Source: Escherichia coli (GTDB lineage Bacteria; Pseudomonadota; Gammaproteobacteria; Enterobacterales; Enterobacteriaceae). Taken from it: a DNA stretch of 64,000 nt. The translations under genes and the position numbers were made by a program. The notes under the pieces were generated by a model. It was not told the DNA's origin and searched no databases. It saw only the letters and a program-made list of their open reading frames with translations. Of the stretch, positions 19,907 to 51,533 are shown one piece after another (position 1 is the stretch's first letter; each line of letters starts with the position of its first letter). The stretch lies in NCBI RefSeq assembly GCF_030013595.1, contig NZ_CP122768.1; one strand, written 5' to 3'.

Positions 19907-21745
19907 TTATTCATCAATTGCGAATAACAATGCATTCTGGCCGATGGCGTAAACGCGGTGTTTCTCCCCGTTAACGGAAACGCGTTTTGTGTATCGGCGT
20001 TTCCCGTCCGTGTCGCGGTCAACAATCGCGCCAGCATCGTCAAGACTGGCCGCTATGCGTTTCAGGTCGTAGCCGCTGGCCGCCTCACATAGTGCTTCCG
20101 GTAAAAACCAGTAAACCCGCTCGCCGTTGCTCCCCGGTCGCCACCATCCGGCGCGGGTGCTTACTGGTTCGCTGTATGTGCTGCCCCCTTCAAAGCGTGA
20201 AGCATGGCGGGCGATAAACCCCGCGACGGCCCGGAGTATTTTCACGTCCTCCGATTGCCCCCGCCCACGATAGTCCGCCCACGCATCAAACATCGCTTTC
20301 ACTGCCTCCAGTGCTTCGCCCTGTTTCCACGGCAGAATCCCGGCAGTTATCGCCATTTCCCCGGCCAGTGCGCACAGTGTGAAACGCGCGGCGGCGCGTG
20401 CCTCCTGTCCGGTGCTTACGGGGAATTGTTCGCGCAGTATGGCGTACATATCCGCCAGCGTCTGGCCGTTGCTGTCGGTGCTGGTGGTGTCACTTTCATT
20501 GCGGGAAATCAGCCAGCGCACAAACTCCGGCCCGGCGTGGCCGTAATGGGTAGCCGCATTACCGCGCAGTGTTTCGGCAAATTTCCGGCCTGCTCCCCGG
20601 CGTTCTGTGTCGTTGTCGGGGTTGTGGGGTAGTGCCATTCCGTGAAGACAGTCAAATGCCCCGTAAAGCCGCTGTGCCGGAATATCCAGTAACCGCATTT
20701 CCTGCCCGGCCTTGATGCGCTGGCCGCCGCTTTCCATGTGTTTACCCACGGTCATTTCCCCGGTGGAAATAATCATGGTGCGCCATGTGTTGACCGGGCG
20801 GGCCATGCCGGACACCTTGCCACGCTGACGGCCTGTTCCGTTGCCAAGCTGATAAATCAGCCCGCCAATATCTCTGGCCGGGGCTTCGCCAATTTCATCC
20901 AGTATCAGCGCGGTATCGTTCCGCATGGTTGCCAGCCCTTCAAGCCCGGTGCTGGTGGCGTTCCAGTTGCGTTTAAAGTTGCGGGGTTCTCCCCATACGC
21001 TACAGGCCACCAGCGCCCCCACGCTTTTCCCGCTGGAACTGTCGCCCATGAAATGAAATCCGCCGCTGTCCACATCAAGCAACCACAGCAACGGCCCGGC
21101 GAGCGATGCACACACGGCCAGCATGGTTACCGGGTTTCCCCGGCATAATGCGGCCACGTTGTCGCGCCAGCCCTCCGGCGTTCCTGCGGTGGCGTACTCC
21201 TGTGAGCCTGCTTCTGTTGACTGAAACACCACATCACCATCACCGATAACCCCGCCCGGCATGACAAACAGGGCCGGGGAGTGCCACCCGGTGGCCGTGG
21301 CCGCGAGCGCCCGGCGTTTTGGTGCTGACTCCATGATGTATTCAGTCAGTGCCTGCCGTTGTTTGTAGGGAATGGTAACGCCCATGCGTAGCAGTTCCTG
21401 CCGGAGTTCTCCGCCGTCTCCGGCGAGCATTTCCATCGGTGCGGCCCATTCCCGCCACTGGCCTGACGGCGTGAGAAAACGGAGTAATCGCCCGTAGTTT
21501 TCGTCTTTGCTGTCGCTGGTCATGGCGATGACCTCCAGCGGGGAACATATAAACGTGTCTGTGTTGGTTGAGTCGCGCACGCCGTGCCAGTAAAGGCCGG
21601 GTTTCAGTATCTGGCCGCCGTCCACCTGTACATGCTGCGAATAAGTGGCGTAGCCCGGACGCGCCGGGCTGACTTTGGGGTGTTTCTTGCGTGGTGGTTT
21701 TCTCTTCCCGGATGTGACCGGGGTTTTAGTGGTTGTCCGGGTCAT
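19907..21745 (-). CDS. Replicative helicase, P4-alpha-like/SF3-type (612 aa)
   Basis: Walker A (GDSSSGKS) and Walker B (ALILDEIGE) motifs; overlaps primase stop by 20 nt; followed by iteron origin. Confidence 0.75.
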   Translation of the reverse strand: MTRTTTKTPVTSGKRKPPRKKHPKVSPARPGYATYSQHVQVDGGQILKPGLYWHGVRDSTNTDTFICSPLEVIAMTSDSKDENYGRLLRFLTPSGQWREWAAPMEMLAGDGGELRQELLRMGVTIPYKQRQALTEYIMESAPKRRALAATATGWHSPALFVMPGGVIGDGDVVFQSTEAGSQEYATAGTPEGWRDNVAALCRGNPVTMLAVCASLAGPLLWLLDVDSGGFHFMGDSSSGKSVGALVACSVWGEPRNFKRNWNATSTGLEGLATMRNDTALILDEIGEAPARDIGGLIYQLGNGTGRQRGKVSGMARPVNTWRTMIISTGEMTVGKHMESGGQRIKAGQEMRLLDIPAQRLYGAFDCLHGMALPHNPDNDTERRGAGRKFAETLRGNAATHYGHAGPEFVRWLISRNESDTTSTDSNGQTLADMYAILREQFPVSTGQEARAAARFTLCALAGEMAITAGILPWKQGEALEAVKAMFDAWADYRGRGQSEDVKILRAVAGFIARHASRFEGGSTYSEPVSTRAGWWRPGSNGERVYWFLPEALCEAASGYDLKRIAASLDDAGAIVDRDTDGKRRYTKRVSVNGEKHRVYAIGQNALLFAIDE

Positions 21746-22769
21746 GCTCCATTTCCCATAGCATCAAATCGTTAAAGTCGGAAAGGTCTGGTGATGCACC
21801 GGGCGGCCATTCCGGGAATGTGACGTAACACCCGGCCAGCAATGCGGCTTCGTTGGCTGCTCTGGAACCGGGGTTATCTTTTGATGCCCGGTCATCATCC
21901 CCGGCGATAACGAGAGATATGCGCGAGCCGTATCGCTCACGCAGCGCCATAGCCACATGTTTAAGGTTTCCCGCATTCATGGCACACACCACGGCCATGA
22001 CGTTCCAGTACTGGAGAAGGGCGGCCCCGGTGGCCCACCCCTCACACACGTAAACGTCATGTTCCGGCGCTTCCGGGGCCATCAGGTCAAAGCTCCCCAT
22101 AACATGGAAAGCCCCCTGCACCTGACCATCACGGAGAAACATTTTTCGACCGTCCGGGCTGATAATCTGCACGTTCACCACTTCGCCGCATACGTTGTAC
22201 AGCGGGACAAGCAAATCATTACCTGACTGATACAGATTGCCGGGCTGTAGCCGTTTTTTCATGAGATAGGGATGAGAAGGGTTTGCCACCTCCGCCCGGC
22301 CAAGCAACTCAAAGGCCCGGCAGGCGGTCAGTTTCTGGCGCTGGTGGCGCTGTTGCTGTTCCCGCTGGCGGAGTCTGGCCGCCTCCTGTTCTGCGGCCTG
22401 TACCCGCACCCGTTGCGCCTCCCGTTGTTCGCGGGTCATTACATCAGGTTTGCCCAGCGCGGGCAGGCACAGCCCCAGCCTGTCCGCCACAATACGGGCG
22501 GCATCAGTCTGCCGCACATTCCATAAATAAGCCCCCAGCGCCACAAGGTCGCCGCCGCTGTCCCCGGTGGCGAAGTCGTGCCAGCATCCGTCCACCAGCG
22601 AGACGGAAAAACTGCCCGCGTGACGGTCTGCACGCGTGGGGTTACGACACACCCATTCAGTGGCCTGCCGTTTACCTTCGGGCAGCCATTCGGGAACAAG
22701 GATTTCTGCATGTTGTGCCGCCACTGCGGCAACGCTACGGATTGCGTTAATCGTGGCTATGTCACGCAT
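21726..22769 (-). CDS. DNA primase with zinc-binding and TOPRIM domains (about 347 aa from MRDIATIN start)
   Basis: Zn-binding region C..HAGSFSV..GCWHDFATGDSGGDLVALGA; TOPRIM motifs VYVCEGWATG and LVIAGDDD; start chosen at ATG 22769 overlapping upstream stop (ATGCGTGA); longest ORF extends to 22919. Confidence 0.7.
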   Translation of the reverse strand: MRDIATINAIRSVAAVAAQHAEILVPEWLPEGKRQATEWVCRNPTRADRHAGSFSVSLVDGCWHDFATGDSGGDLVALGAYLWNVRQTDAARIVADRLGLCLPALGKPDVMTREQREAQRVRVQAAEQEAARLRQREQQQRHQRQKLTACRAFELLGRAEVANPSHPYLMKKRLQPGNLYQSGNDLLVPLYNVCGEVVNVQIISPDGRKMFLRDGQVQGAFHVMGSFDLMAPEAPEHDVYVCEGWATGAALLQYWNVMAVVCAMNAGNLKHVAMALRERYGSRISLVIAGDDDRASKDNPGSRAANEAALLAGCYVTFPEWPPGASPDLSDFNDLMLWEMEHDPDNH

Positions 22770-23076
22770 GTTGCCCGTCCTCCCTGATTTCCCCGGTGCG
22801 GCAGCGCCAGTTATACGCCTCCACAACCTCACTGAATCCGGCCACAAGTTCAGCCGTAACAGCGATGGAATCGCCCAGGCTGCGTAGTTCATTTGGACCA
22901 AGAGCATTATTGTCGCCAATTACCGAAAGTAGCCGCCCTGTGCCAGCCAGCGCATCAAGCAGTTTGCGGGCGCAGTAATCCGCATCATCAAACATTGCGC
23001 GGGCTTCCTGTGCGTCTGCGTTTTTGATGGCCGCAACCAGTAGTTCAGGTATCCGGGTGTTATACATATCACGCAT
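22762..23076 (-). CDS. Hypothetical small protein (104 aa)
   Basis: ORF MRDMYNTRIPELLVAAIKNADAQEARAMFDD...; start overlaps upstream stop and stop overlaps primase start via identical CATGCGTGA junctions. Confidence 0.5.
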   Translation of the reverse strand: MRDMYNTRIPELLVAAIKNADAQEARAMFDDADYCARKLLDALAGTGRLLSVIGDNNALGPNELRSLGDSIAVTAELVAGFSEVVEAYNWRCRTGEIREDGQHA

Positions 23077-23365
23077 GGCTTACCTCCCCGGCCTGCTGGT
23101 CGTAACACTCCATCAGTTCGGCCATACAGCCAATGAGGGCAGGGGCTGTCTGTAGAAATCCGGCTAACTGGCAGATCTCGTCTCTGGAATAGGTGATGGG
23201 GTTTTCGCGTAACTGGCTTTCCTCCAGTGCCTTACCAACAAAGGCAATCCCCGCAAGTAAATTCACTCTGTGCCAGTCTGCATCAACGCGCAGACTCCAG
23301 CGGCTTTCTTCGTCCGGCATACTGCTCATGGCGGCTTTCATTGACTCACGCAGACAATCACGCAT
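23069..23365 (-). CDS. Hypothetical small protein (98 aa, start at internal Met MRDCLRES)
   Basis: ORF linked to neighbours by the same CATGCGTGA stop/start overlap; longest ORF extends to 23446. Confidence 0.45.
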   Translation of the reverse strand: MRDCLRESMKAAMSSMPDEESRWSLRVDADWHRVNLLAGIAFVGKALEESQLRENPITYSRDEICQLAGFLQTAPALIGCMAELMECYDQQAGEVSHA

Positions 23366-23555
23366 GACGCACCCCCTGAGCCGGAACGCGGCCAGCAAAC
23401 AGCAACACAAAATCACGCGCCAGCATACGGCGGGCGGTTGTTTCATCGGGTGCGTTGACGGATTCGCGGTGTGGGCGGTCGTTCAGGTCGGAACGGCGAA
23501 CAGCCAGAAAGTGAAAGGTAAATTCAGGGTGTAACGGGGTTGGGGTCGTAGCCAT
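23358..23555 (-). CDS. Hypothetical small protein (65 aa)
   Basis: Strong Shine-Dalgarno AAGGAGG 8 nt upstream of ATG at 23555; the longer 201-aa ORF has junk-like composition upstream of this Met. Confidence 0.5.
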   Translation of the reverse strand: MATTPTPLHPEFTFHFLAVRRSDLNDRPHRESVNAPDETTARRMLARDFVLLFAGRVPAQGVRHA

Positions 23556-23582
23556 TCTGGCAGCCTCCTTTTGCAAATTTAA

Positions 23583-23621
23583 GGAGTCACCGCCTGAGTT
23601 CCTACACTCATAAGGGGCGGT
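23583..23621. promoter_or_regulatory. Inverted repeat GTCACCGCC-N21-GGCGGTGAC upstream of the small-gene operon (candidate operator or 5' hairpin)
   Basis: Perfect 9-bp inverted repeat 26-70 nt upstream of the 23555 start codon. Confidence 0.3.
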
Positions 23622-23744
23622 GACGCTGGCAGGGGTAGGAATACCGGCGCAAAAGGAAACCGGCCAGCCTTTCGGCTGCCCCACCAGCGCCACCATAGAT
23701 ACAGTGCGGGTCTTGCCGCTGTGCATGGGTGCGCGATGGCACGA

Positions 23745-23775
23745 CACAAAAAAAGACGCTGGGCGCGTCTGTGTC
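23745..23775 (-). terminator. Rho-independent terminator downstream of alpA
   Basis: Minus-strand agacgcgcccagcgtct hairpin followed by TTTTTTT. Confidence 0.45.
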
Positions 23776-23981
23776 GCCTTTTGCTCATTAAACGGGTTCC
23801 TACGCCCGGCTGGTGGATTTACACCAGCGGGGGAAATATAACGCCCACCAGCGATGGCAGGCAAGCAATATTTGCGGTTGCCGCCCATCCCGTGGGGCGT
23901 GTGGTGGTTGTTTTGGGCGTGAGAACGCCCCGGCCCTGTTACGGGCCTTTCTGGCATTTTCATAATGATTATCGCGGTTGG

Positions 23982-45534: not shown

Positions 45535-46968
45535 ATGAAAGTAACGCTGCCAGAGTTTGAACGTGCAGGAGTGATGGTGGTTGGTGATGTGATGCTGGAT
45601 CGTTACTGGTACGGCCCCACCAGTCGTATCTCGCCGGAAGCGCCGGTGCCCGTGGTTAAAGTGAATACCATCGAAGAACGTCCGGGCGGCGCGGCTAACG
45701 TGGCGATGAATATCGCTTCTCTCGGTGCTAATGCACGCCTGGTCGGGTTGACGGGCATTGACGATGCAGCGCGCGCGCTGAGTAAATCTCTGGCCGACGT
45801 CAACGTCAAATGCGACTTCGTTTCTGTACCGACGCATCCGACCATCACCAAATTACGGGTACTTTCCCGCAACCAACAGCTGATCCGTCTGGATTTTGAA
45901 GAAGGTTTCGAAGGGGTTGATCCGCAGCCGCTGCACGAGCGGATTAATCAGGCGCTGAGTTCGATTGGCGCGCTGGTGCTCTCTGACTACGCGAAAGGTG
46001 CGCTGGCAAGCGTGCAGCAGATGATCCAACTGGCGCGTAAAGCGGGCGTTCCGGTGCTGATTGATCCAAAAGGCACCGATTTTGAGCGCTACCGCGGCGC
46101 TACGCTGTTAACGCCGAATCTCTCGGAATTTGAAGCTGTTGTTGGTAAATGTAAGACTGAAGAAGAGATTGTTGAGCGCGGCATGAAACTGATTGCCGAT
46201 TACGAACTCTCGGCTCTGTTGGTGACCCGTTCCGAACAGGGTATGTCGCTGCTGCAACCGGGTAAAGCACCGCTGCATATGCCAACTCAGGCGCAGGAAG
46301 TGTATGACGTTACCGGTGCGGGCGACACGGTGATTGGCGTCCTGGCGGCAACGCTGGCTGCGGGTAATTCACTGGAAGAAGCCTGCTTCTTTGCCAATGC
46401 GGCGGCAGGCGTGGTGGTCGGCAAACTGGGGACATCCACGGTTTCGCCGATCGAGCTGGAAAATGCAGTACGTGGACGTGCAGATACCGGCTTTGGTGTG
46501 ATGACCGAAGAGGAACTTAAGCTTGCTGTAGCGGCGGCGCGTAAACGCGGTGAAAAAGTGGTGATGACCAACGGCGTCTTCGACATCCTGCACGCCGGGC
46601 ACGTCTCCTATCTGGCAAATGCCCGCAAACTGGGAGACCGCCTGATTGTCGCCGTCAACAGCGATGCCTCCACCAAACGGCTGAAAGGGGATTCCCGCCC
46701 CGTTAACCCGCTCGAACAGCGTATGATTGTGCTGGGCGCACTGGAAGCGGTCGACTGGGTGGTGTCGTTTGAAGAAGACACGCCGCAGCGCTTAATTGCC
46801 GGGATCCTGCCAGACCTGCTGGTGAAAGGTGGCGACTATAAACCAGAAGAGATTGCCGGGAGTAAAGAAGTCTGGGCCAACGGCGGCGAAGTGCTGGTGC
46901 TCAACTTTGAAGACGGTTGCTCGACGACCAACATCATCAAGAAGATCCAACAGGATAAAAAAGGCTAA
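45535..46968 (+). CDS. hldE: Bifunctional heptose 7-phosphate kinase/heptose 1-phosphate adenylyltransferase HldE (477 aa)
   Basis: [27 protein letters not shown]... ribokinase-like plus cytidylyltransferase domains. Confidence 0.9.
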
Positions 46969-47385
46969 CCGGAAAGCGTTTCACAGATCTCGCTTCGTAC
47001 CTGGCAGGCCTATTGACGCTGTTGTTTTTTCAACCTAGAGTAAAGGAACAAGGGTAAGGGAGGATTTCTCCCCCCTCTGATGAGTTGTTAGTAAGTCGGG
47101 AAACTTAACAGTAACAACACAACCAGTATGATGACGAACTTCATCATAACCCTTTCCTTCTGTAAGGCCCCTTCTTCGGGAGGGGCTTTCCCGTTTCAGC
47201 CCCTTGCTGACTTCCCGATTGTTGATGAACGCCGGACCCCGCGCAATGCTTACCCAGAGGCAGTTTTGCCTTCCCCGAGCGGTCACGCAAAATGCTGCAA
47301 CAGCCCGATCATTTGCACTTTTTATCGGAACGCAGATATAAAGAATCCCCGGCTTTTTGGGCCAGGGATGTTCATAGTTGAAAAT

Positions 47386-49047
47386 TTATTCTACGTTTTC
47401 GGCGACGGGAGTTGTTGAGGTTAAGGGTGAAGTCAATGCCGCCAGCGAGCCGCCAGAAACACCGATTTCATTGAGCAAGGAGTCAATCAGTGGTGCCTGT
47501 GTGCGGTAAGAGAGTGCGGCAGACAATGCCTGTTCTGCCAGGTTTCCGCCACTAACGCTGCCTGATGCTGCATCCCCCGCAGCACCACCTCGGTTTAATC
47601 CATCGACCTGAATAATCTTGATGCCGTCGATAGACTTCATCGGCTCAACGGATTTCTCTATTACTGCAGGTAACGACTGTAATAGCGCCAGTTTGAATTT
47701 AAGGCTGGTTTGTTCATCAGAAAGTACGTTGATAGCGTCGTTCAGCGCACGTTGCGCTTCTGCTTCCGCCAGACCCTTTTTACGCGTAGCTTCGGCTAAC
47801 TCAACGATTGCCGCCGCCTGCATCTCTGCGGCTTCTTTCTCTGCTTTCGCCCGCACGGTCAGTTCAACCGCTTTGGTTTCTGCATCCTGCGCGGCAGCGA
47901 TTAGGGCAACTTGTTTAGCACGATCGGCTTCTGCGGTCTGGCGAGTTGTTTCTACGTTTTGCTGGGCGCTTACCGCTTCTGCAAGTGCAAGGTTGGCACG
48001 CGCTTCCGCTTGTGACTGCTGTTCCGATTTGGCGGCAATAGCGATCGATTTCGTCTGGTTGGCGATTTCGGTGACCTGCTGCTGTTCGATCTCTTTAATG
48101 CGAACTTCACGTTCAGCTTCAACTTTTCTGGAACGGACGGCCTGTTCGCGGTCGATTTCCGTTTCCTGAATCTGTCGTTCAGCCAGAATTCGCGTCTGCT
48201 CTGCTTCCCGACGACGCTCGGCCTCAAAAGCCGCAATTTTCGCATTCTGCTCAGCGGTACGGGTTTTAACCTGCTGCTCCTGCTCAAGCGTCATAAACGC
48301 TTCTTGTTGTTCAATCTCCAGCTTCCGCGAAAGCGCATCACGGTTTTTCTCACGCACCGCAACTTCTACATCCTGTTCAACTTCGTTACGTTCGCGACGA
48401 CGGCGCTCCGTCTCCTGCGTCAGCTTGGTTAAACCTTCGGCGTCAAAGGCGTTGTTAGGATTGAAATGTTCTTTCGACGTCTGGTTAAAGTTGGTAAGTG
48501 AAACGCTTTCCAGTTCCAGGCCGTTTTTCGACAGATCTTCAGCTACGGTATTTTGTACGCCCTGCACGAAGTTCTCGCGGGTATCCTGTAACTCATGCAT
48601 GGTCATTTGTGCAGCTGTTGCACGGAGGGCATCGACAAATTTATCTTCAACCAACATACGTAAGTCTTCAGGCGACAGGGTGCGTTGCCCCAGCGTCTGG
48701 GCGGCGGTGGCAATACCTTCCACTGACGGTTTTACCCGCACAAAGAAAGCGACAACGACATCGACGCGCATACGATCTTTCGTAATCAGGCTATCAATGG
48801 TTGAGCGGCTGACTTCCAGCTTCAGAGTATTCATATTGATGGGGATTATTTCATGAAAGATCGGCATCACGATTGCGCCACCGCTCATTACCACTTTTTG
48901 CCCACCTAAACCAGTACGAACAAAAGCTTGCTCTGCCGAAGCGCGACGATAGAGCCTGGCGAAAATAATTCCAATAATAAACAGAATGCATACGGCAATA
49001 ATCGCGGTAAACATCCAGGAGGGCACAGAATTAACAATATCATCCAT
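47386..49047 (-). CDS. yqiK: Flotillin-like inner-membrane protein YqiK (553 aa)
   Basis: N-terminal TM segment, SPFH/band-7 domain, long Ala/Glu-rich coiled coil. Confidence 0.8.
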   Translation of the reverse strand: MDDIVNSVPSWMFTAIIAVCILFIIGIIFARLYRRASAEQAFVRTGLGGQKVVMSGGAIVMPIFHEIIPINMNTLKLEVSRSTIDSLITKDRMRVDVVVAFFVRVKPSVEGIATAAQTLGQRTLSPEDLRMLVEDKFVDALRATAAQMTMHELQDTRENFVQGVQNTVAEDLSKNGLELESVSLTNFNQTSKEHFNPNNAFDAEGLTKLTQETERRRRERNEVEQDVEVAVREKNRDALSRKLEIEQQEAFMTLEQEQQVKTRTAEQNAKIAAFEAERRREAEQTRILAERQIQETEIDREQAVRSRKVEAEREVRIKEIEQQQVTEIANQTKSIAIAAKSEQQSQAEARANLALAEAVSAQQNVETTRQTAEADRAKQVALIAAAQDAETKAVELTVRAKAEKEAAEMQAAAIVELAEATRKKGLAEAEAQRALNDAINVLSDEQTSLKFKLALLQSLPAVIEKSVEPMKSIDGIKIIQVDGLNRGGAAGDAASGSVSGGNLAEQALSAALSYRTQAPLIDSLLNEIGVSGGSLAALTSPLTSTTPVAENVE

Positions 49048-49703: not shown

Positions 49704-49971
49704 ATGTCACTCCAATGTCCATTTAGTGACGCAATATTTACTTTAGGATAGTTTCCTTGCTTACATTTATCTTTGTTAATAATAACACATGTTAGAGAAG
49801 TTCTGGAAGAGAAAGTCTTTTAATATGGTTTTTTATTTTTCACTAAAAAGTGTGATCGGGGACAATATATTTACGCACGTTATGTTTAAAGGCACTACAC
49901 TGATTGGGGAATACTGAAATCAGAAAAAGCATATGGCCTTAAAAGGTATGCGATAACCGGAGGATGTGCTT

Positions 49972-50172
49972 ATGGATCATAGTCTTAATTCTTTAAATAA
50001 TTTCGATTTCCTGGCGCGTAGTTTTGCCAGAATGCACGCAGAAGGTCGCCCGGTCGATATTCTGGCCGTTACTGGTAACATGGATGAAGAACATAGAACC
50101 TGGTTTTGCGCACGTTATGCCTGGTATTGCCAACAGATGATGCAAACCAGAGAACTTGAATTAGAACACTGA
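49972..50172 (+). CDS. glgS: Glycogen synthesis/surface composition regulator GlgS (66 aa)
   Basis: [58 protein letters not shown]... Confidence 0.85.
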
Positions 50173-50177
50173 TATTA

Positions 50178-50200
50178 CGGGCCGTCTGGCCCGTTTTTGT
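50178..50200. terminator. Bidirectional hairpin terminator between glgS and ubiK
   Basis: acgggccgtctggcccgt hairpin followed by TTTTT. Confidence 0.5.
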
Positions 50201-50206
50201 GTTGCT

Positions 50207-50506
50207 TTATTCTGCTTTATCAATAGGCGGGATAGCCGGAGGAGATTGAAGATCTGCTACCGAATTATTGCGCGCTTCCAGTTCACTGATGCGCTGCTCC
50301 AGTAACGCCAGTTTTTCACGAGTCCGTAACAGGACTTGCGTCTGAACGTCGAATTCTTCGCGGCTTACCAGATCGAGACGCGTCAGCTGCGCTTGTAGGG
50401 TTTGGCGGATTTTTTTCTCCACATCTTCCCCGAACTCCCTGATTCCTTTAGGCATTGATTCGTGAACCTGGCGAGCGATTTGCTCAATTTTTTTCGGGTC
50501 AATCAT
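50207..50506 (-). CDS. ubiK: Ubiquinone biosynthesis accessory factor UbiK/YqiC (about 99 aa from MIDPKKIEQ start)
   Basis: BMFP-family coiled-coil protein; start chosen at internal Met. Confidence 0.7.
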
Positions 50507-50629
50507 TGTAGTTTCCCTGTACTGATAGGTGTTGAGTGCCATTGTAGTGCGATAAGGGTAAGTCATAAACCAGAATTATGTGAAGCTATGCGTTGCTGCC
50601 GCTAATCATTAGCGTTATAGTGAATCCGC

Positions 50630-50780
50630 TTATTCTCAGGGCGGGGCGAAATTCCCCACCGGCGGTAAATCAACTCAGTTGAAAGCCCGCGAGCGCTTTG
50701 GGTGCGAACTCAAAGGACAGCAGATCCGGTGTAATTCCGGGGCCGACGGTTAGAGTCCGGATGGGAGAGAGTAACGATTC
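50630..50780 (+). ncRNA. FMN riboswitch (RFN element) in the ribB leader
   Basis: Conserved RFN segments AGGGCGGGGCGAAATTCCCCACCGGCGGTAAA ... GGTGTAATTCCGGGGCCGACGGTTAGAGTCCGGATGGGAGAGAGTAACG upstream of ribB. Confidence 0.75.
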
Positions 50781-50879
50781 TGTCGGGCATGGACCCGCTC
50801 ACGTTATTTTGGCTATATGCCGCCACTCCTAAGACTGCCCTGATTCTGGTAACCATAATTTTAGTGAGGTTTTTTTACC

Positions 50880-51533
50880 ATGAATCAGACGCTACTTTCC
50901 TCTTTTGGTACGCCTTTCGAACGTGTTGAAAATGCACTGGCTGCGCTGCGTGAAGGACGCGGTGTAATGGTGCTTGATGATGAAGACCGTGAAAACGAAG
51001 GCGATATGATCTTCCCGGCAGAAACCATGACCGTTGAGCAGATGGCGCTAACCATTCGCCACGGTAGCGGTATTGTTTGCCTGTGCATTACTGAAGATCG
51101 CCGTAAACAACTCGATCTGCCAATGATGGTAGAAAATAACACCAGCGCCTATGGCACCGGTTTTACCGTGACCATTGAAGCAGCTGAAGGTGTGACTACC
51201 GGTGTTTCTGCCGCTGACCGTATTACGACCGTTCGCGCAGCGATTGCCGATGGCGCAAAACCTTCTGATCTGAATCGCCCGGGCCACGTTTTCCCACTTC
51301 GTGCTCAGGCTGGTGGTGTACTGACGCGTGGCGGCCATACTGAAGCGACTATTGATCTGATGACGCTGGCAGGCTTTAAACCGGCTGGTGTGCTGTGTGA
51401 GCTGACTAATGACGATGGCACGATGGCGCGTGCACCAGAGTGCATTGAGTTTGCCAATAAACACAATATGGCGCTCGTGACTATTGAAGACCTGGTGGCA
51501 TACCGTCAGGCACATGAGCGTAAAGCCAGCTGA
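50880..51533 (+). CDS. ribB: 3,4-dihydroxy-2-butanone 4-phosphate synthase RibB (217 aa)
   Basis: [45 protein letters not shown]... Confidence 0.9.

Follow-up and report, generated by a model that had tools for sequence, protein, structure and literature searches.

The sib/ibs units of Escherichia coli encode type I toxin-antitoxin pairs, wherein a hydrophobic Ibs protein of 18 to 19 amino acids is specified by an ORF lying wholly antisense to a Sib RNA. In the original description of the family, by Fozo et al. in 2008, overproduction of Ibs reportedly depolarizes the membrane. Toxicity, together with repression by the cognate Sib, has been seen for IbsC, IbsD, and others of strain K-12, and in cells without a given Sib, even basal-level expression of its cognate ibs gene is lethal (PMC2943612). 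Each Sib represses solely its cognate ibs mRNA, with ibsA as the exception (PMC2943612). The experimentally dissected model for the family is SibC/IbsC from the fau-serA spacer. SibC carries two independent recognition domains, TRD1 directed to the ORF and TRD2 directed to the translation-initiation region, and pairing spreads from both (PMC2943612). In Salmonella, IbsA inhibits the F0F1 ATP synthase, according to a 2025 preprint (10.1101/2025.05.26.656083). Tandem duplication is an established property of the Sib family, and the number of loci varies between strains (PMC2887945).

The sibD/sibE locus of K-12 occupies a 794-bp spacer that includes two tandem units spaced 375–377 bp, each with a match to the Rfam SIB_RNA model and an ibs gene. 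The genes sibC, sibD, and sibE are expressed in K-12 and are listed as NAD-RNA-encoding genes, and a 35-bp minimal promoter suffices for the paralogue sibD and mediates its NAD capping (PMC12956327). Here we describe the equivalent spacer in an E. coli genome (GCF_030013595.1), as found in a 64,000-nucleotide stretch of contig NZ_CP122768.1, hereafter called the window.

Results

A SIB_RNA match between hldE and yqiK

The spacer extends from 46969 to 47385, between hldE (45535–46968, plus strand) and yqiK (47386–49047, minus strand). Its length of 417 bp is exactly as given in the original prediction, with hldE ending at 46968 and yqiK at 47386. Both flanking genes are annotated alike in a 100%-identical record from E. 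coli HCP5S3_I2, and the unit described below has the synteny that the sibD/sibE locus requires, between hldE (rfaE) and yqiK. Of 5426 complete E. coli genomes, 5417 match at least 80% of the spacer length. Strain EC0900 (NZ_CP158187.1, 694366-694431) matches just the first 66 nt of the spacer, and has apparently undergone deletion or interruption of its sib/ibs unit.

A search with Rfam covariance models, which had been named as the way to check the proposal that the spacer may hold a small RNA, supports that proposal with a score far above threshold. The SIB_RNA family (RF00113) matches 47013–47162 on the plus strand, where it scores 139.4 bits (E = 5.5e-30) and thereby exceeds its gathering score of 56, and the match covers model positions 1-147 of 147 and is not truncated. 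The SibE and SibD copies of K-12 score 142.1 and 147.7 bits with the same model. At E ≤ 10, no other Rfam family was found in the spacer besides SIB_RNA and its own mirror match on the minus strand, which at 29.3 bits is sub-threshold and arises because the architecture is near-palindromic.

These findings, together with those presented below, make it almost certain that the spacer represents one sib/ibs type I toxin-antitoxin unit, namely the hldE-proximal sibE/ibsE copy. The sibE/ibsE unit is already known and well characterized in E. coli, and the version in this strain is a common one-unit allele. The component features are collected in Table 1.

Table 1. Features of the hldE-yqiK spacer, in window coordinates.
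Feature	Position	Strand	Details	Basis
hldE 3′ flank, 5′ of the Sib promoter	46969–47012		Unique sequence, outside the repeat unit	
Sib promoter	47013–47041	+	−35 TTGACG (47013-47018), 17-bp spacer, −10 TAGAGT (47036-47041)	Promoter scan
Sib antitoxin sRNA, SibE type	47048–47191	+	144 nt, first base A	SIB_RNA match; ends from curated MG1655 sibE
P1 closing stem	47050–47055 with 47149–47154	+		Fold
Predicted ibs mRNA	47050–47211	-	~162 nt, overlaps Sib over ~142 nt	Ends by homology with ibsD
Internal Sib stem-loop	47057–47076	+	Holds gggaggatttctccc (47058-47072)	Folds; stem of the Rfam consensus structure
Central stem-loop	47077–47126	+	Includes the TRD1-equivalent	Fold
ibsE toxin gene	47088–47147	-	19 codons plus stop, encodes MMKFVIILVVLLLLSFPTY	Read from sequence
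Equivalent of SibC TRD1 (+46 to +68)	47094–47115	+	Predicted to pair within the ibs ORF	Homology mapping from probe and coordinates in PMC2943612
Sib hairpin UAUGAUGA-N6-UCAUCAUA	47127–47148	+	8 pairs, nearly invariant in the family; complements the ibs start and first codons	
Equivalent of SibC TRD2 (+99 to +115)	47147–47165	+	Linker, single-stranded; complements the ibs ribosome-binding region	Mapped from PMC2943612
Sib intrinsic terminator hairpin	47164–47189	+	Holds ccccttcttcgggagggg (47168-47185); 11 pairs, UUCG-type loop, tail CUUUCC	Fold
Predicted ibs promoter	47218–47246	-	−35 TTGCGC (47246-47241), 17-bp spacer, −10 AACAAT (47223-47218)	Predicted from sequence
Repeat-unit part specific to the D/E locus, 5′ of the ibs promoter	47247–47344		92% identical between the two K-12 units	
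Terminator-like hairpin, right-hand end of the repeat unit	47345–47369	-	16 nt past the yqiK stop; 9 pairs, 6 G-C, T-rich tail TCTTTATATC	Terminator scan

Promoter, ends, and fold of the Sib RNA

The start of the SIB_RNA model coincides with the −35 box of the Sib promoter, whose TTGAC is invariant in six of six aligned units. From 47013 to 47137, a stretch that includes this promoter, the sequence is identical to K-12 sibE, and the A at +1 is conserved. The ends of the RNA were transferred from the curated MG1655 sibE (3195097-3195240) by a gap-free alignment, which maps the annotated 3′ end to 47191. The features of a discrete RNA of ~140 nt are present, including the −35 and −10 elements, an 11-pair terminal hairpin, and the mapped ends, and on this basis a discrete Sib transcript with its own promoter and terminator is predicted. 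In strain GMF054, unit 1 has a 100% identical Sib body, and four positions separate this body from that of K-12 SibE.

The plus strand from 47048 to 47196 yields a minimum-free-energy fold of −50.6 kcal/mol (z = −3.06), with 1 of 200 shuffled sequences folding as well. The opposite strand between 47030 and 47212 also folds well (z = −3.97, 0 of 200 shuffles as good). Both hairpins quoted in the original prediction are present as stems of the minimum-free-energy fold, one within the internal Sib stem-loop and the other within the terminator (Table 1). Moreover, when this Sib RNA and five K-12 Sib RNAs were analyzed with RNAalifold, the stems, those of both quoted hairpins included, recurred, and compensatory changes among these paralogues in 9 of the 42 consensus pairs, four of them in the terminal hairpin, lend support to the Sib stems. 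This terminal hairpin has been named the ‘P7 transcription terminator stem’ (PMC2943612). It is not listed by our terminator scan because its tail, CUUUCCCGUUU, is too U-poor.

Two parts of the RNA correspond to the recognition domains of SibC. The TRD1-equivalent is the most variable block between E and D units. The TRD2-equivalent linker is unpaired at 47155-47163 in the fold, and its positions 47160, 47162, and 47163 carry SibD-type bases, not those of K-12 SibE. There is a slight possibility that this hybrid Sib, with a SibE-type TRD1 and a SibD-type linker, has altered cross-specificity.

We also observed a good promoter-like match (TTAACA-16-TATGAT, 10/12) within the Sib gene at 47105-47132 on the plus strand. 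It is probably a by-product, because TATGAT complements the ATGATG start region of ibs. If active, this element would result in a short 3′ fragment of Sib.

The ibsE gene and its predicted mRNA

The spacer had been described as noncoding, with no credible ORF, and this description is contradicted by the 19-codon ibsE gene on the minus strand, which reads ATG ATG AAG TTC GTC ATC ATA CTG GTT GTG TTG TTA CTG TTA AGT TTC CCG ACT TAC TAA from 47147 to 47088. An ORF of 19 codons falls under any ordinary ORF threshold. RefSeq annotates the gene on the 100% identical HCP5S3_I2 record as ibsE (WP_001387082.1, ‘type I toxin-antitoxin system Ibs family toxin’), and the same peptide recurs in many genomes. 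As is typical of the Ibs family, the ORF is hydrophobic, falls within the range of 18 to 19 amino acids, and is wholly antisense to Sib.

The peptide is 95% identical to K-12 IbsE (18 of 19 residues), the sole substitution being L4F (47138). All residues that are invariant among IbsA–E are present (M1, M2, I6, I7, L11, L12, S15, F16, and Y19). The L4F version of IbsE is presumed to be toxic by analogy with its K-12 paralogues.

The ends of the ibs mRNA were placed by reference to ibsD. For the 5′ end at 47211, we used the sequence of primer ERI-T7-ibsD (…GTCAGCAGGGGGCTG) of Han et al. (2010), which reproduces the ibsD start mapped by primer extension, and for the 3′ end at 47050, that of primer ibsD+163, an end that was estimated from transcript size rather than mapped (PMC2943612). 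The −10-like hexamer AACAAT sits 7 nt upstream of the inferred transcription start site. An aligned −10-like hexamer, TACGAT, is present in sibC, and the A at position 2 of this element (47222) is invariant. The predicted ibs promoter is weak, and for this reason it is not listed by the consensus scan.

The right half of the spacer

The original prediction considered the spacer as a whole to be structured. This holds for ~47048–47211 and for the hairpin at 47345–47369, whereas the right half folds no better than shuffled sequence. No additional structured RNA was found in the right half by folding of 47192-47385 on the plus strand (z = −0.65) or of 47212-47385 on the minus strand (z = −1.40). 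Likewise, neither Rfam at E ≤ 10 nor an internal-repeat search revealed a second, degenerate Sib copy in 47192-47385. The hairpin at 47345–47369 is found at the end of both K-12 units as well, and in our reading it most likely ends yqiK transcription ahead of the ibs promoter.

Homology common to all five K-12 units stops near the ibs −10 element (~47226), and only the D/E locus has the sequence from 47227 to 47370. Within this portion, the ~100 bp from 47247 to 47344 are duplicated with every unit at the D/E locus. This segment could not be aligned with the sibA, sibB, or sibC loci, has no Rfam match at E ≤ 10, and lacks excess folding. An undescribed regulatory site that sets the timing of ibs transcription might reside here, but we regard this as improbable. 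A short motif in the segment, C-CGCAAA at 47284-47291 on the plus strand (CGCAAA at 47286-47291), lies ~75-80 nt upstream of the inferred ibs start site and is invariant in six sib/ibs units, albeit in a heavily gapped alignment wherein such agreement is compatible with chance.

Copy number and allele history

Unlike the K-12 locus with its two tandem units, the spacer of this strain carries one unit of 357 bp (47013–47369), and a search of the spacer for an internal direct repeat or a second SIB_RNA match found neither. The number of units in other genomes was taken from the total of distinct places matched per genome. Coverage of 80% of the 794-bp K-12 spacer is unusable for counting two-unit loci, because overlapping pieces join in one-unit genomes. 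On average, ~1.76 places were matched per genome over 5425 matching genomes, and a single place was found in 7 of 30 records of a spread sample. These values correspond to a one-unit allele in roughly a quarter (~24%) of complete E. coli genomes. As one-unit alleles are common, the single unit represents allelic variation, and membership in the sibD/sibE locus is retained.

Across 47013–47191, identity to unit 1 of GMF054, a two-unit strain, is 100%, and K-12 unit 1 differs at 4 positions and K-12 unit 2 at 16. The left part of the unit, up to 47123, is purely of the unit-1 type, and upstream of ibs the bases are a mixture of the unit-1 type, the unit-2 type, and private ones. Because the right part is a mosaic, a single clean crossover between units 1 and 2 is unsupported as the origin of the allele. 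The one-unit allele may reflect an ancestral single copy, or else a deletion that was followed by gene conversion.

A different arrangement is present in the one-unit strain LR-62-2 (L009, 701-1118), wherein a unit-1-type promoter precedes a Sib/ibs body of the unit-2 (D-type) kind. The arrangement resembles the product of an unequal crossover inside the promoter (the equivalent of 47022-47038). Given a D-type allele in LR-62-2 and an E-type allele here, at least two one-unit forms exist. The one-unit allele documents copy-number variation at this tandem locus.

Other features of the window

A P4-like satellite-prophage island at 21500-26788 adjoins a tRNA gene with anticodon CAT (26713-26788, minus strand). 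Its annotated genes include an integrase, a toprim-domain protein, an Icd-like protein, and an ash-family protein, and Rfam matches within it correspond to C4 antisense RNA (23613-23700) and isrK (23749-23828), both on the minus strand. Of 5426 complete E. coli genomes, only 17 contain the island at full length, and among the best matches listed all are pig isolates, several of them named as ETEC.

In the interval 49966-51533, glgS (49966-50172, plus strand) is followed almost directly by ubiK/yqiC (within an ORF at 50207-50566, minus strand), then by an FMN riboswitch (50628-50776, plus strand) and ribB (50880-51533, plus strand). The ygiL-yqiGHI fimbrial operon with IS2, which lies between ubiK and glgS in K-12, is absent from this interval.

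Discussion

Alternative interpretations

The quoted hairpins could be viewed as mere terminators or leader structures of hldE and yqiK, in which case the spacer would hold no independent gene. A terminator-like hairpin does follow yqiK (47345-47369), and the Sib terminator could also stop read-through from hldE, because the terminator scan found no separate terminator-like site for hldE in 46969-47012. However, both hairpins lie inside the RNA identified by the full-length SIB_RNA match, which has its own near-consensus promoter, and the sib/ibs unit also occurs at the unrelated yegL-mdtA and fau-serA loci with its own annotated sRNA and toxin gene. An explanation confined to the flanking genes is therefore extremely unlikely. 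Of the leader or terminator structures initially suggested, the terminator component survives in the form of the Sib hairpin (47164-47189) and the terminator-like yqiK hairpin (47345-47369), whereas we found no evidence of a long leader for hldE or yqiK. There is also virtually no chance that the spacer encodes a conventional protein. The mechanical ORF list does include a 96-aa ORF (47128-47418, plus strand) and an 83-aa ORF (47035-47286, minus strand), but neither is annotated in any record inspected, and the former extends antisense into the end of yqiK. Single-base indels at 47210 and after 47167 break the frames between units, and K-12 holds fragments of 59 and 43 aa at the equivalent places. 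Both ORFs were rejected as genes because they are not conserved.

Another reading is that a sib/ibs unit is present but has decayed to a non-functional remnant after the loss of one tandem copy. This would be in keeping with the presence of one unit here versus two in K-12, and the right half carries several private substitutions, at 47213, 47229, 47252, 47306, 47325, and 47343. Furthermore, IbsA of K-12 reportedly lacks toxicity in a deletion background (PMC2943612), and so not every copy need be active. Against decay, the ibsE ORF is intact, as are its start codons and the Shine-Dalgarno-like AAGGA/AGGG, and the same holds for the Sib promoter and every Sib stem; the predicted −35 and −10 hexamers are free of the private substitutions. 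In addition, other strains have a Sib body with 100% identity, many genomes encode WP_001387082.1, and the covariance-model score is level with those of functional copies (139.4 versus 142.1 and 147.7 bits). We therefore consider a remnant very improbable and favor the reading of the spacer as one intact sibE/ibsE unit. More generally, an enterobacterial spacer that seems to be structured and free of ORFs can conceal a type I toxin-antitoxin pair, although the importance of the present case is small beyond getting the annotation right.

Proposed mechanism

In a single sibE/ibsE unit, two convergent promoters would produce fully overlapping transcripts. The near-consensus sigma-70 promoter on the plus strand would yield the highly structured, 144-nt Sib RNA (47048-47191), and the weak promoter on the minus strand would yield an mRNA of ~160 nt (47211 to ~47050) encoding the 19-aa hydrophobic IbsE. 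Sib is expected to pair with its own ibs mRNA, starting at the TRD1-equivalent (in the ORF) and the TRD2-equivalent (over the ribosome-binding site), and this pairing would block synthesis of the toxin. Any Ibs that was made would be expected to enter the inner membrane and to halt growth. The rest of the spacer, ~175 bp, would supply the ibs promoter region and the hairpin that probably stops yqiK transcription short of ibs. The pairing mechanism, the toxicity, and the transcript ends in this model are carried over by homology from experiments on K-12 paralogues.

Comparison with known systems

The closest relative is SibE/IbsE of K-12 MG1655 (b4611 / b4666), which shares with the present unit its curated position by hldE, its orientation, and an identical Sib promoter. 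The two Sib RNAs differ at 4 of 144 positions, and the toxins are identical at 18 of 19. The distinguishing features of the unit described here are L4F and the SibD-type bases at linker positions 47160, 47162, and 47163. Moreover, the K-12 sibE unit is followed by a second unit, sibD/ibsD, whereas the single unit in this strain abuts yqiK.

SibD/IbsD (b4447 / b4664), the tandem paralogue in the K-12 spacer, forms the unit that is missing from this strain. SibD agrees with this strain in its linker bases, CUGU, and at several sites upstream of ibs, and 14 of the 15 positions in the sequence of the mapped ibsD start site, GTCAGCAGGGGGCTG, are matched in the window. Over 47013-47191, the SibD unit differs at 16 of 180 aligned positions, which are concentrated in the TRD1-equivalent, and the IbsD toxin is 74% identical.

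SibC/IbsC resides at a different locus but has the same architecture, the same stems, and the same layout of TRD1 and TRD2. Alignment with the window extends to its −10-like element and to a conserved block surrounding the ibs start site (GTTxCAGC...GCTG). The IbsC toxin is 68% identical, and there is no sequence shared with sibC past ~90 nt beyond the Sib 3′ end.

Other chromosomal type I systems of E. coli, including ldr/rdl, hok/sok, tisB/istR-1, as well as shoB/ohsC, also pair a small hydrophobic toxin with an antitoxin that is an antisense RNA, but their sequences are unrelated. Sib spans the toxin ORF completely, in contrast to the divergently encoded IstR-1 and OhsC, whose complementarity is only short. 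The ldr/rdl genes are likewise tandemly duplicated within one spacer (PMC2887945).
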